Origin: Wolbachia endosymbiont of Armadillidium arcangelii
GTDB taxonomy: Bacteria > Pseudomonadota > Alphaproteobacteria > Rickettsiales > Anaplasmataceae
DNA length: 32,000 nt
NCBI RefSeq assembly: GCF_040207875.1
Contig: NZ_CP157942.1
Span: forward strand, 1,492,001 to 1,524,000
Direction of reading: 5' to 3'
A program made the position numbers and the translations under genes. Position 1 is the stretch's first letter. Every line of letters begins with the position of its first letter. Below, piece after piece: positions 11,602 through 15,916 of this stretch. The notes under the pieces were generated by a model that saw only the letters and a program-made list of their open reading frames with translations, did not search any database and had not been told where the DNA came from.

Positions 11602-12828
11602 TTACTTCATCTCCGGCACAGAATCACTTATGGTTTTTGATGGTTCTTTTGGTTTCTCATACTTACTAAGTAAAGGTAAAATTATCACAAAGTATGAAAA
11701 GTAATAAAGAGTTGAAAGCCTACTTAAAGTGATGTAAGGCTCTTTGACTTCCTGACCGCCAAGCCAAGCAAGAAATGCAAAATTTACTGCAAAAACCCAA
11801 AAAAATTTCTTAAACAGTGGACGATAAGCACCACTTTTAACCTTTGATTGATCAAGCCAAGGCAAAAGAAACCACACTAAAATAGACCCAAACATGGTAA
11901 GTACACCAATAAGTTTATTTGGAATTGAACGCAGCATCGCATAAAAAGGTAAGAAATACCACTCTGGCACTATATGTACTGGAGTTACCATAGGATCAGC
12001 TTCTATATAATTATCAGGATGCCCAAGATAATTAGGGGCATAAAAAACAAATGCAAACAAAATTATAAAAAATAAGCCAAAAGTTATGCAATCCTTTGCT
12101 ATATAATAAGGATAAAATGGAATGGTATCCTTATCTGACCTGACTTCTATTCCACTTGGGTTACTAGAACCAAATCTGTGTAGAGCAATAACATGCAACA
12201 TAGCTAAAGCAATAATAATGAAAGGCAGAAGATAATGCAGTGCAAAAAAACGATTAAGTGTTGGGTTATCAACAGAAAAACCGCCCCATAACCATGTAAC
12301 TATTTCATTGCCAACCAGGGGTATGGCTGAAAATAAGTTGGTTATGACTGTTGCACCCCAAAAACTCATTTGCCCCCAGGGAAGAACATACCCCATAAAG
12401 GCAGTTGCCATCATTGCAAAAAATATAAATATGCCAATAAACCACACCATCTCTCGTGGCCTCTTATAAGATCCATAATACAATCCACGCATTATATGGA
12501 CGTATACAACCATAAAAAAAAGCGAAGCTCCAACAGCATGAGTGTAGCGTATCAACCATCCGTAATTTACGTCACGCATTATACGCTCCACGCTGTTAAA
12601 CGCATAATCAACATGCGGAGTATAATGCATAGCAAGAAATATACCTGTTATTATCTGCAAAATTAGTGCTATACCAGCTAAAGAACCAAAGTTCCAAGCA
12701 TAATTTAAATTTTTTGGTACTTGATAAGAAGCAGTGTGTTTTAGAAAAGAAAATATAGGAAGCCTATACTCTATCCAACCTAATATACCTTTTTCTTCTA
12801 TTATTTCTTTTTTGCTATCATCTTCCAT
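11602..12828 (-). CDS. petB: cytochrome b
   Basis: 408-aa ORF with a multi-helix profile, conserved heme-ligand His pairs (RYTHAVGAS..., ALHYLLPF...) and a [10 protein letters not shown] motif. Confidence 0.96.
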
Positions 12829-12920
12829 AACTTAAAGTTTTTTCGCCTTAACTCATTTTATTGTAACAACTTACCTACAACGCACAATAAAAAGTTTAAA
12901 TTTAAAGAATAGATTTCACG

Positions 12921-12952
12921 AAAATAAGCACTCAAGTTTGAGTGCTTATTTT
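12921..12952 (-). terminator. perfect palindromic hairpin with A/T-tract flanks after ANK gene 1
   Basis: Sequence aaaataagcactcaagtttgagtgcttatttt, with about 14-bp arms. It overlaps the ANK stop codon, and a near-identical copy lies at 14224-14256. Confidence 0.7.
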
Positions 12953-14009
12953 AAAGGGACTTTTGATATATACCTTTAGATGTTGTTGAGTTGCTTAGTG
13001 AACTTCCAGGACACTGATAAAGTTTTTCACACTTACTAAGTGCCGTCTCGATGTTTCTTTCTAGAGAATTAAGTTTTCTTTCTTTAATCTGTTCTATCGT
13101 CAAAAATGAGTCATCCAATGGCATTGAATATTTTTCTCTTGTGAACTTTCTGACCACTACATCAGCTAGTAGGGCTGTTCCATTAAAATCAATCTTTCTA
13201 GCAACAGCCTGCTGTGCAGGGAGTAAAGCAGGAGAACTGCTGAATAAGCCATTGAGTGTGGCGGTAGTTAAAGCTCTCACCCAACTAAATATACTATTAA
13301 TAGAAGAAGAAGATTTTACTGCGCTGCTTGTAGTGCTGCTAGCTTCTTTAAAATTTTCTCTGGTAAGAGTGAAGGAAGAATTCACTGTGCTACTTGCCAA
13401 GTCTGTGGTATTATTAGTTTCCAATTCTATCTTAATTGCTTTGGTAGGGAATAGTGAAAGATTCGCTGCACTACTCAATACAGATTCTATCTCTTGAATT
13501 TTACTATTGCTATTACATCTATCTCTTCTATAACCTCCAACAACATCCAAGGCTGTTTTGCTATTCATATCTTTAATACTAGTATCAGCATTGTTGAAGA
13601 GCAGAAGTTTTACTATATCTGGGCGACAATAGAAAGATGCTAAGTGCAAAGGTGTAAAGCCTTTATAATTTGTAGCATTGATGTTAGCACCACAATCAAG
13701 TAAAAATTGTGCTATTTCTAGTTTGCCATCAATAGCAGCAATGTGTAAGGGAGTGCTCAAATATCGACTGCTAATAGTAGTATTAACATCAGCACCACTG
13801 TCACACAAAAACTGCAATACCTTTAAGTTACCTATGTAAGTAGCAGAATGCATAGGATTCATACTATATTTTTCATCATTCAAAATCTCATTTTTTATGT
13901 GTCTATGATCTGCCTCTTCAATATATTCTTTAACTTTCTGAAAATCACCCATGCTTATAGCAGCAAGTAATTTTTTTCTCAGGCTCTCAATTATTTCTTG
14001 TCTTTCCAT
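12951..14009 (-). CDS. ankyrin-repeat protein with a conserved non-ANK C-terminal module (paralog 1)
   Basis: About 3-4 ANK repeats (TPLHIAAIDGKLEIAQFLLDCGANINA and others). The ATG at 14009 (MERQEII) follows AGAGG. The tail is homologous to that of 14264..15451. Confidence 0.85.
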   Translation of the reverse strand: MERQEIIESLRKKLLAAISMGDFQKVKEYIEEADHRHIKNEILNDEKYSMNPMHSATYIGNLKVLQFLCDSGADVNTTISSRYLSTPLHIAAIDGKLEIAQFLLDCGANINATNYKGFTPLHLASFYCRPDIVKLLLFNNADTSIKDMNSKTALDVVGGYRRDRCNSNSKIQEIESVLSSAANLSLFPTKAIKIELETNNTTDLASSTVNSSFTLTRENFKEASSTTSSAVKSSSSINSIFSWVRALTTATLNGLFSSSPALLPAQQAVARKIDFNGTALLADVVVRKFTREKYSMPLDDSFLTIEQIKERKLNSLERNIETALSKCEKLYQCPGSSLSNSTTSKGIYQKSL

Positions 14010-14113
14010 TAAATACCTCTTGAAGAACAATGTTTCCAGCTTTATATCACACAATTTAGTGTGCACAAGTAAAAATTTACAGAGAAAAATTTTCAATGGT
14101 TAAAAATTAGGTC

Positions 14114-14218
14114 TTCAGCAACCTATCATGTAACTTTTGTGCAAAGCATTCCGAGCTTCCTTATTCGAATTTTTTGGCTCTTGATAAGAAGCAATGTGTT
14201 TGAGAAGAGGAAATAAGG
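14114..14218 (-). pseudogene. duplication-joint scar: orphan 3' fragment of the J-domain gene fused to an orphan 5' fragment of petB
   Basis: 14114-14162 aligns to 15564-15621 with a 9-nt deletion. 14167-14218 aligns to 12707-12760. Confidence 0.8.
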
Positions 14219-14223
14219 GATAG

Positions 14224-14256
14224 AAAAATAAGCACTCAAATTTGAGTGCTTATTTT
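14224..14256 (-). terminator. perfect palindromic hairpin after ANK gene 2
   Basis: Sequence aaaaataagcactcaaatttgagtgcttatttt, a copy of 12921-12952 with a one-base change in the loop. Confidence 0.7.
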
Positions 14257-14263
14257 AACTGAT

Positions 14264-15451
14264 TTAGAGGGATTTTTGATGACATACACCTTTAGATATT
14301 GTTGTGTTACTTAGTGAACTCCTAGGACATTGATCAAGTTCTTCAAACTCACTAATTGCCATCTTGATATTCCTTTCTATAGCACTAACCTTTCTTTCTC
14401 TAATTTGCTCCAATGTCAAAAGCGAATCATCCAATGGTGTTGAATATTTCCTCCCGATAAACTTTCTGATTACCACATCAGCTAGCAGAACTGTTCCATT
14501 AAAATCAACTTGCGAAAAACCAATTGGGCTTTCAGCCGAATGGGCAACAGCTTGCTGTGCAGGAGGTAAAGCAGGAGCACTGCTGAATAAGCAACTGATG
14601 GTGGTAGTTATCCCACTAAATATACTATTAATAAAAGAGGAAGGTTTTACTGCACTACTTGGTGCAAGAGTAGTATCTTCTGGGTTTAAATTGGCACTTT
14701 CTGCCTCTGCAGCAATTTCTTTTATCGTTTTACCAGGATAAAATGACTTAACATAATCTAATGGTGTATCGTTTCTTATGTCCTTAACATTGTCAATATC
14801 AGCACCATTATCGTATAATAGCTTTATTATTTCTTGGCGTTTTGATTTAATAGCCAAGTATATAGGTGTTTGTCCCTGTTCGTTTTGAACATTAACATCA
14901 GCGTGATGTATGATAAGAAGCTCAACTATCCTTAAGTAATTTTTTTTAACAGCAGCATGTAGACATGAATCTTGTGAGTGATCGTAAAGATCAAATTTAC
15001 CATTTGGGCTAGCACCACGCTTAAGTAAGACTTCCACTTTCTCCGGACTATTTTCATCTATAGCCCAACCTACAAGAGTACGTTCTTTACGAGCGTATGA
15101 AAAGTAGCCACTAATCCTAGCCTTTTTATCGATTAGAAGCTCTATCATTTCTGTAGTGCCCTTCGTAACAGCATAGTATATAGGTGGCATACGAAAATAA
15201 TCCTCAATATTAACATCTGCACCATTCTCAATTAAAAAATTCATCATTTCTAAATCTTGTTTACTAACAGCAATCGATAAAGGTGAGTTACCATTCACAT
15301 CTTTAGAGTTAATAATAACGTTGGAATTGAGAGTAGCAGTTTCAGCCTCTTTTGCTTTTTTAACACATTCTTTAACTTTCTGAAAATTCTCTTCCTTCAC
15401 TGCAGAACGTAGATCATCTTCCAATTTCTTAAATTCTGTACTTGTGAGCAT
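14264..15451 (-). CDS. ankyrin-repeat protein with a conserved non-ANK C-terminal module (paralog 2)
   Basis: About 6 ANK repeats. A strong AGGAGGG Shine-Dalgarno sequence precedes the ATG at 15451. The C-terminal 130 aa are homologous to paralog 1. Confidence 0.9.
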   Translation of the reverse strand: MLTSTEFKKLEDDLRSAVKEENFQKVKECVKKAKEAETATLNSNVIINSKDVNGNSPLSIAVSKQDLEMMNFLIENGADVNIEDYFRMPPIYYAVTKGTTEMIELLIDKKARISGYFSYARKERTLVGWAIDENSPEKVEVLLKRGASPNGKFDLYDHSQDSCLHAAVKKNYLRIVELLIIHHADVNVQNEQGQTPIYLAIKSKRQEIIKLLYDNGADIDNVKDIRNDTPLDYVKSFYPGKTIKEIAAEAESANLNPEDTTLAPSSAVKPSSFINSIFSGITTTISCLFSSAPALPPAQQAVAHSAESPIGFSQVDFNGTVLLADVVIRKFIGRKYSTPLDDSLLTLEQIRERKVSAIERNIKMAISEFEELDQCPRSSLSNTTISKGVCHQKSL

Positions 15452-15559
15452 AAACCCTCCTAAAGACTAATATTTTTAGCCCTTATACCATATAAATTGA
15501 ATGTGTGCTAGCAAAATCTATATGGAAAATTAAAGAGGTTTTTACAATGTAAGAAATTG

Positions 15560-15916
15560 TTATTTCAGCAACTTATCACGTGCTGCGTTTAACTTTTGTG
15601 CAAAATATTCTGAGCCTCCTTTGTCTGGATGGACTAGCTTCATTAAATTTTGGTATGCTTTATTGATTTCATTCTGGCTTGCTTCAGGATTTAGCCCCAG
15701 TATTTTTAATGCTTCGTCTTTAGACATGTTATCACCAGTATAATTTTTGTTGTAACTTGTACCACTATTAAATTCGTTTAAAAACTTACTTAATATAGAG
15801 TTCATCATAAAACTTATGTTATTTCTCTTCGCCAGAAAGAGAAAAAATACAACAACGCTAGGCAGGACAAAAGTGATTATTGCGAATATCAAAAAAAGGA
15901 AAAAGATGAATGACAT
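15560..15916 (-). CDS. membrane-anchored J-domain protein (Tim14/Pam18-like)
   Basis: N-terminal TM helix FIFFLFLIFAIITFVLPSVVVFFLFL, followed by a minimal J domain EALKILGLNPEASQNEINKAYQNLMKLVHPDKGGSEYFAQKLNAARDKLL. Confidence 0.85.
   Translation of the reverse strand: MSFIFFLFLIFAIITFVLPSVVVFFLFLAKRNNISFMMNSILSKFLNEFNSGTSYNKNYTGDNMSKDEALKILGLNPEASQNEINKAYQNLMKLVHPDKGGSEYFAQKLNAARDKLLK

Follow-up and report, generated by a model that had tools for sequence, protein, structure and literature searches.

The described system closest to the locus treated here is the wPip_ANK38-41 cluster of Wolbachia (WP0729, WP0730, WP0731 and WP0733), four adjacent ankyrin-repeat (ANK) genes that are alike only outside their ankyrin repeats and for which an old tandem duplication has been suggested (Klasson et al. 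2008, PMC2515876). These genes are 1146-1182 bp long (1170 bp in the case of ANK40), and wPip_ANK38 is highly expressed (Walker et al. 2007, PMC2045654); taken over both papers their lengths span 1119-1182 bp, and wMel has no homolog of them (Klasson et al. 2008, PMC2515876; Walker et al. 2007, PMC2045654). Here we analyze a stretch of 32,000 nucleotides (the window) from the Wolbachia endosymbiont of Armadillidium arcangelii (contig NZ_CP157942.1, positions 1,492,001 to 1,524,000 of the forward strand), in which two neighboring ANK genes, ANK-L and ANK-R, lie between petB and a gene for a J-domain protein (the J gene). The analysis supports the view that the spacer between the two is the novel joint of a tandem duplication, with its ends in the 5' part of petB and at the 3' end of the J gene. 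Almost certainly this cluster and wPip_ANK38-41 are one locus, an identification based on the order of accessions and the lengths of the genes: in wPip a 389-aa ANK protein (CAQ54839.1) comes three accessions after the J protein (CAQ54836.1), and 389 aa fits the 1170 bp of ANK40. ANK-L and ANK-R resemble the wPip genes also in sharing only their C-terminal, non-ANK part; the literature searched makes no mention, for the wPip cluster, of a joint, orphan petB or J pieces, an ancestral J-petB adjacency or copy-number differences between strains.

All four genes are on the minus strand: petB (cytochrome b, 11602-12828), the downstream flank of the array, followed by ANK-L (12951-14012), ANK-R (14264-15451) and the J gene (DnaJ/Pam16-like, 15560-15916), its upstream flank. 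Between the ANK genes lie two fragments, also on the minus strand and head to tail. The orphan petB fragment (14163-14220) holds petB codons 23-42 and in pairwise alignment is 83% identical over 58 nt, or 87.5% over 48 nt, to its parent segment within petB (12703-12760). The orphan J fragment (14114-14162), which corresponds to J codons 99-118 but lacks 9 nt and is decayed in the stop region, is 74% identical over 58 columns, including the 9-nt gap, to the last 20 codons of the J gene (15564-15621), and 88% identical in its distal 32 nt (14131-14162 vs. 15590-15621). The two meet at about 14162/14163, petB codon ~42 against J codon ~99. A search of the whole window on both strands returns the predicted parent as the best match of each fragment, and against 200 dinucleotide shuffles the local score is 67 vs. 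26.6 +/- 2.3 for the petB fragment (z = 17.4) and 49 vs. 24.9 +/- 2.6 for the J fragment (z = 9.3). The initial annotation of this DNA had proposed the J piece as given here and the petB piece as a slightly shorter match (14167-14218 from 12707-12760), and had suggested a formal alignment against shuffled sequence as a check; both fragments beat every shuffle (0/200 as high).

The fragments are displaced from their parents by 1460 and 1459 nt, respectively, so that both have one common period, and the terminator, the 3' part of the ANK gene and the leader are duplicated in one and the same order. The genes cut by the breakpoints are both intact at the outer ends, as the initial annotation had also held: petB encodes 408 aa (Pfam Cytochrome_B, 2e-80) and the J gene 118 aa (Pfam DnaJ, 4e-9), each with a full Pfam match. 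The orphan pieces themselves have deletions and no frame, and are conserved no better than the adjacent leader; we regard them as non-functional passengers.

The same joint is found in other Wolbachia. A close relative is wVulC, the feminizing strain of A. vulgare, which is 99.1-99.9% identical to the window in this region at the DNA level and has an identical J protein; its draft genome (GCA_001027565.1, L081) has four ANK genes between J and petB, and all three of their spacers carry the terminator, the petB fragment, the J fragment and a leader. There are three ANK genes and two joints in wNo (CP003883, L083), four ANK genes and three joints in wStri (L084), and at least two units with one joint in wTur, the Tetranychus urticae strain (L089); array size is thus two units in the window, three in wNo and four in wVulC and wStri. 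One ANK gene of wStri (unit 2, L084 11330-13800) is split by a group II intron with an RVT_1/GIIM open reading frame (ORF), the joint of wTur (L089 10958-12096, of class II as described below) is split by an insertion sequence (IS; DDE_3), and unit 2 of the wVulC draft carries a 1-nt insertion (L081 10696) that shifts the frame and splits the gene. The wTur IS and the wStri intron, both secondary insertions, are the only elements of their kind in these arrays, and the founding unit has neither an IS nor a repeat at its borders. A decayed paralog with the same C-terminal region, adjoining a WO-type serine recombinase, is present in the group B Wolbachia of Camptogramma bilineatum (L088 7900-10600), where it has neither joint nor hairpin, and the wTur array adjoins a recombinase and a DUF2924 gene (L089 5700-7600).

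When all joints are aligned to a composite of the true petB 5' region and the true J 3' region, homology to J begins at one place (AAGGAGG, J codon ~99) in every joint of wVulC, wNo, wStri and wTur. The joints fall into two classes. Those of class I keep petB codons ~23-42 and have a deletion of 8-9 nt in the J piece, while those of class II, which precede the unit here called type C in wNo, wStri and wTur, have a different 8-nt deletion there and, instead of the petB codons, probably some 60 nt from upstream of petB (a score reached by 1-21 of 1000 shuffles). Together the two classes would probably tile the predicted original joint. A loss of about 160 bp from the window's joint had been proposed in the initial annotation, and class II joints elsewhere do probably retain part of what was lost, with moderate support from shuffles. 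Since petB, hisS, nifU and J differ by ~8-9% between these lineages and the joint is common to them, the founding event predates their split.

The two-unit state of the window is a different matter from the founding joint, and corresponds to the four-unit wVulC array minus 3093 bp. One block of uninterrupted match to wVulC (99.66% over 4081 nt) extends from hisS to the terminator and takes in ANK-R, the joint and ANK-L; a second block runs from the 3' part of ANK-L through petB (99.1%); and the wVulC sequence between the two blocks, about 3.1 kb with units 3 and 4, is absent from the window. In wVulC the 3' ~410 nt of units 2 and 4 are ~97% identical. At eight diagnostic sites (13245-13102) the window carries the allele of unit 2, and at four terminator sites (12944, 12939, 12937 and 12936) that of unit 4, a switch that places the crossover between 13102 and 12944, within a stretch of 157 bp (12945-13101) identical in the two units. 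Judged by these alleles, ANK-L appears to be a recombinant of wVulC unit 2 (its 5' part, to 13102) and unit 4 (from 12944), with the frame intact at 353 codons. The 1.46-kb period noted above is consequently that of a chimera.

Protein records give the same picture. The records of wVulC, wVulM, wVulP and the nuclear f element include the products of units 3 and 4 (535 and 333 aa, respectively), and a 458-aa protein of wCon falls into one cluster with the unit-3 product; neither of the two products is on record from the A. arcangelii Wolbachia genome, whose accession numbering leaves one protein between petB (XBS67000) and ANK-R (XBS67002). The two-unit state is in all likelihood derived, and specific to this lineage. 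A second, independent loss of the same kind is found in wNo, whose unit 1 consists of the first ~765 nt of wStri unit 1 (93.6% identity) joined to the last 415 nt of wStri unit 2 (99.0%).

The initial annotation had taken the locus for the direct product of one tandem duplication of about 1.46 kb, with ANK-L and ANK-R as its two copies. Of this, the tandem duplication with ends in petB and the J gene has been borne out by the recurrence of the joint in the spacers of wVulC, wNo and wStri, and both fragments do have a single period; ANK-L and ANK-R are not, however, two products of one event, the 1.46 kb is the period of a chimera, and the presence of just two genes is secondary.

That ANK-L and ANK-R are members of two unit classes that have diverged deeply is seen when whole units are compared. 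ANK-R, unit 1 of wVulC, unit 3 of wNo, unit 4 of wStri and unit 2 of wTur form the type C group, 81-96% identical over their full length, including a class II leader; with its orthologs, the petB-proximal ANK genes of wNo, wStri and wTur, ANK-R is 81-82% identical over 100% of the unit. All other units fall into the class I group. Alignment across the two classes is limited to the terminator, the leader and the 3' ~30% of the unit, which codes for the non-ANK C-terminal part. The type C unit is J-proximal in the isopod strains (window 14264-15451) and petB-proximal in wNo (L083 12178-13368), wStri (L084 15478-16650) and wTur (L089 12276-13457), and the 3' flank of the true J gene matches the leader class of the first unit in each genome. 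Identities within single joints are mosaic: the window's joint and joint 1 of wNo are 100% identical in the terminator and 90% in the petB piece, but only 80% in the J piece, which is in turn 98% identical to that of wVulC joint 3. Such mosaics point to frequent conversion.

The state of the locus without ANK genes can be seen in two sequences. In the soil-metagenome contig Ga0137382_10034448 (L091 1150-1400) only 91 nt, free of any ANK gene, leader or hairpin, separate the J stop codon from the start codon of petB, and in the Wolbachia of Drosophila bicornuta (JAPQLF010000133.1, L090) a partial second copy of J (56 aa, the J-domain half) lies directly upstream of petB in the same way. The J-petB spacers of both align with window 12829-12900, part of the petB upstream spacer (12829-12920, minus strand), which is homologous to the ancestral intergenic spacer and missing from the window's joint; neither of them contains a petB|J junction. 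The L091 contig is Wolbachia-like; its hisS-nifU-J block is 91.8% identical to the window and its petB only 86.9%, a hint that it may be a mosaic or belong to a lineage not yet placed. In L090 (9902-12160) an oppositely oriented Amidase_2 gene (525 aa) separates the full J gene from the partial copy. The latter is a further orphan J piece in this position that arose from a different insertion or duplication, and it suggests that the J 3' end and petB spacer form a recurrent site of rearrangement.

Outside supergroup B (L085-L087) the J gene keeps its nifU-hisS neighbors and is not adjacent to petB. In wTis and wPaur petB follows an ABC1-kinase (UbiB-like) gene, and a scan of genome contigs for petB gave, among the matches listed, at least four Wolbachia-like loci, all with such a gene beside petB and none from supergroup B. 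The simplest reading is that J and petB were neighbors ancestrally and that the supergroup-B lineage gained one ANK cassette in the spacer between them. The initial annotation had expected some relatives to have a single ANK gene and no scar; among about seven informative genomes none had just one ANK gene between J and petB, the states seen being zero ANK genes (L091 and L090) and two to four units.

These results are best accounted for by a history in five steps, to which we assign a probability of about 0.85. The J gene would originally have stood some 91 nt upstream of petB, an arrangement that L091 and, with its second J copy, L090 still show. In an ancestor of the supergroup-B strains, we infer, one ANK cassette was inserted into the spacer between them. 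A single illegitimate recombination would then have duplicated in tandem the segment consisting of the last ~20 J codons, the leader, the ANK gene, the terminator, the petB upstream sequence and petB codons 1-42, leaving J and petB intact at the two ends and creating the internal joint of petB codon 42 and J codon 99, which can be observed directly today. Homologous unequal exchange and gene conversion between the repeats would have spread this joint and built arrays of three to four units, while the units diverged into the class I group and the type C unit and the copies of the joint lost different parts of the orphan petB sequence. Finally, the arrays would have contracted: in the A. arcangelii strain an exchange within the 157-bp identical stretch of conserved 3' coding sequence would have fused units 2 and 4 of a wVulC-like array, removing 3093 bp and leaving ANK-L chimeric but intact.

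Several points weigh against this history or limit its detail. The comparisons rest on about seven informative genomes, and as none of them has a single ANK gene the insertion of the cassette and the founding duplication are steps reached by reconstruction. The petB-side content of the class II joints is an AT-rich similarity of moderate significance. Microhomology at the founding junction amounts to at most 1-2 nt (A/AA; petB ...TTTAAAT|TATG vs. J ...GACA|AAGGAGG), in sequence that is AT-rich and diverged and with a breakpoint uncertain within ~5 nt, and is ambiguous. Furthermore, collinear unequal exchange can duplicate and delete units but cannot reorder them; to derive the wVulC order from that of wStri by such exchanges alone is impossible in principle, so that one or more additional events must have taken place, for instance a unit cut out as a circle and put back by homology at the opposite end, or an exchange of DNA between strains infecting the same host. 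It is tempting to see in the orphan pieces "handles", homologous to the flanks, that let the array expand, contract, excise as circles and reinsert at either end, making its units quasi-mobile and reorderable cassettes, or to suppose that the J fragment adds promoter sequence for the next ANK gene. We consider this rather unlikely; if true, such a quasi-mobile module could explain the leading position of type C in the isopod strains and its terminal one in wNo, wStri and wTur.

One more objection concerns the copy number alone and leaves the joint untouched, namely that the assembly has collapsed a real array of four units into two. The 157 bp in which the breakpoint falls are the same in units 2 and 4, a classic site for a short-read mis-join. 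The source, however, is a single sequence of 1,711,820 bp with exactly one accession between XBS67000 and XBS67002, the proteins of units 3 and 4 are missing from the records of this Wolbachia, and the finished wNo genome shows an equivalent and independent loss of a unit, so we think a collapse distinctly unlikely. A single duplication of ~1.46 kb in the recent lineage of this genome, with ANK-L and ANK-R as sister copies, has in its favor the plain facts of the window: two units, one joint and an equal 1460-nt offset of both fragments. It is nevertheless very improbable, given that DNA similarity between ANK-R and ANK-L covers only ~30% of the unit, that ANK-R has full-length orthologs in wNo, wStri and wTur, that the joint is present in lineages ~9% diverged, and that ANK-L arose by recombination between two members of a four-unit array.

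Just as improbable, in our estimation, is a mobile or phage-associated ANK cassette that took up flanking petB and J sequence and was repeatedly re-inserted. The recombinase neighbors mentioned above, the WO-type serine recombinase beside the L088 paralog that has the same C-terminal region and the recombinase and DUF2924 gene beside the wTur array, speak for such a cassette. Against it, the order, orientation and register of the fragments in every copy are those of an in-place head-to-tail duplication with one common breakpoint on the J side, the L088 paralog shares the 3' ~410 nt only, without joint or terminator, and no transposase, integrase or terminal repeat is part of the unit. That the fragment similarities are chance matches, a thought that comes naturally with short fragments (49-58 nt) in an AT-rich genome, can be given a negligible probability in view of their z scores, matched by no shuffle, of best window-wide matches that are exactly the two flanking genes, and of the recurrence of the fragments in independent genomes.

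Each unit of the array is a complete cassette of leader, ANK gene and hairpin terminator with a U-run. The terminator hairpins of ANK-L (12921-12952; -17.3 kcal/mol, z -8.1) and ANK-R (14225-14256; -17.5 kcal/mol, z -8.4) are 32-nt palindromes 97% identical to each other, each followed by a U-run (on the gene strand); the palindrome is confined to this array, being found nowhere else in the window nor outside the array in the compared loci, and a scan of viral contigs gave no match. The class I leader of ANK-L (14013-14113, minus strand) has a candidate extended -10 element, TGATATAAA, at 14041-14049 and a Shine-Dalgarno sequence, AAGAGG, at 14016-14021; the class II leader of ANK-R (15452-15559, minus strand) has its candidate extended -10, TGGTATAAG, at 15482-15490 and the Shine-Dalgarno AGGAGG at 15456-15461. 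The two leaders align with a score of 48 vs. 21 +/- 3.8 (0/1000 shuffles as high), which agrees with the view of the initial annotation that each copy carries an ANK gene, an alignable leader and the same palindromic terminator. All 12 of the aligned leaders are homologous, with a TGnTATAA motif ~30 nt upstream of an AGGAGG-type ribosome-binding site and ATG, and from its sequence we read this motif as a putative extended -10 promoter. A duplicated unit that bears its own promoter would be expressed alone, which would explain the survival of the copies as intact genes. A scan for consensus -35/-10 promoters and terminators missed the -10 elements of the leaders and the tight-loop hairpins, its counts being no higher than in shuffles. 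A match to the Rfam Phe_leader family at 14142-14258 on the plus, non-coding strand (30.5 bits vs. a gathering score of 55, E = 0.024) is judged to be a chance one, driven by the hairpin and the T-run.

The proteins are ANK proteins by their Pfam matches (Ank and Ank_2, E-values of 1e-21 to 4e-29 for ANK-L, 353 aa, and ANK-R, 395 aa), and what they have in common is the C-terminal region. The 3' parts of the genes (12921-13330 vs. 14225-14661) are 75% identical, and in a BLASTP comparison of ANK-L with ANK-R it is the last ~130 residues that account for the long alignment, the ANK parts matching at the level of the repeat only. In the AlphaFold2 (AF2) model of ANK-R residues 1-253 form a confident ANK solenoid, with a predicted local distance difference test (pLDDT) mostly >90, and pLDDT falls to <50 at residues 254-345 and 376-395. 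The conserved C-terminal ~140 residues (ANK-R ~254-395, window 14264-14690; ANK-L 12951-13330) have many near-invariant positions among ~40 homologs. This region, encoded by recombination-prone DNA, has a pLDDT mostly <50 and no Pfam match, and a protein search with it returned 14 short fragments; a conserved C-terminal region without a recognizable fold is what defines the ANK family of this array. The status of these genes as "effectors" is an assumption, and the precomputed T4SS_AnkD match on the wVulC ortholog is graded "faint".

As to the rest of the window, petC (10562-11602) and uvrB (8541-10475) continue the minus-strand gene order beyond petB, and nifU and hisS lie on the plus strand beyond the J gene. 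Exact-sequence protein matches to the A. arcangelii Wolbachia genome were obtained for petB (XBS67000.1), uvrB (XBS66999.1), ANK-R (XBS67002.1) and polA (XBS67005.1), and on account of these matches the idea that the window might be the nuclear f element of A. vulgare was rejected; a look-up of the exact ANK-L protein gave no match. The petC frame is 346 aa in the window vs. 254 aa in wNo and wTis; the extra N-terminal part (11300-11602) contains short sequences repeated near 3160-3185, 4114-4157, 4399-4440 and 8303-8333, and looks like a small dispersed palindromic element inserted in frame. Between hisS and polA a stretch of ~1.9 kb (17771-19665) is without an ORF of >=100 aa, and its wVulC counterpart has gene calls of 40-53 aa only; it may be a decayed gene or a non-coding region.

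The locus is an unusually complete base-level record of the growth and shrinkage of a host-interaction gene family in an obligate intracellular bacterium, with the empty site, the founding and probably illegitimate joint, its spread by homologous exchange, the divergence of the classes and two collapses that created chimeric genes all on view. The joint serves as a relative time marker, older than the split of the isopod, wNo and wStri lineages, and the copy number, two in the A. arcangelii strain and four in the wVulC draft, as a means of telling apart feminizing isopod Wolbachia that are very close to each other.

Among other known systems, the Octomom region of wMelPop, about 21 kb with eight genes, is reportedly amplified and contracted in tandem by direct-repeat recombination, so that copy number differs between very close lineages; that amplification is said to be recent, to be bounded by pre-existing repeats and to have over-replication as its phenotype. 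The present array is similarly a case of tandem amplification and contraction of a segment of the Wolbachia chromosome. It differs in that the unit is only ~1.3-1.6 kb and contains one gene, the array is ancient, and the founding joint is probably illegitimate and lies inside two unrelated genes, with no pre-existing repeats or IS bounding the founding ANK unit. Duplication, deletion and chimeric repeats in Wolbachia ANK genes, by way of illegitimate and homologous recombination, have been described by Siozios et al. 2013 (PMC3563639), mostly in supergroup A and as changes of repeat number inside genes, whereas here whole expression cassettes are gained or lost and the chimeras are formed in the non-ANK 3' region. 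In wVulC itself, recent gene conversion between paralogous loci over near-identical stretches of ~100 bp has been found by comparison of female F_1999 with females F_2015 (PMC12908729), which makes a crossover within 157 bp plausible; that exchange involves helix-turn-helix genes 80 kb apart, and is conversion rather than deletion. In the literature searched we found neither the joint nor its orphan gene pieces described, and likewise neither the empty site nor the contractions. As the mechanism is a textbook one and tandem duplication had already been named as probable for this cluster, our analysis refines existing knowledge and overturns none of it; what is new is the base-level reconstruction, with one ancient founding joint common to supergroup B, a pre-insertion site that can still be seen and two recombinational contractions that took place independently.

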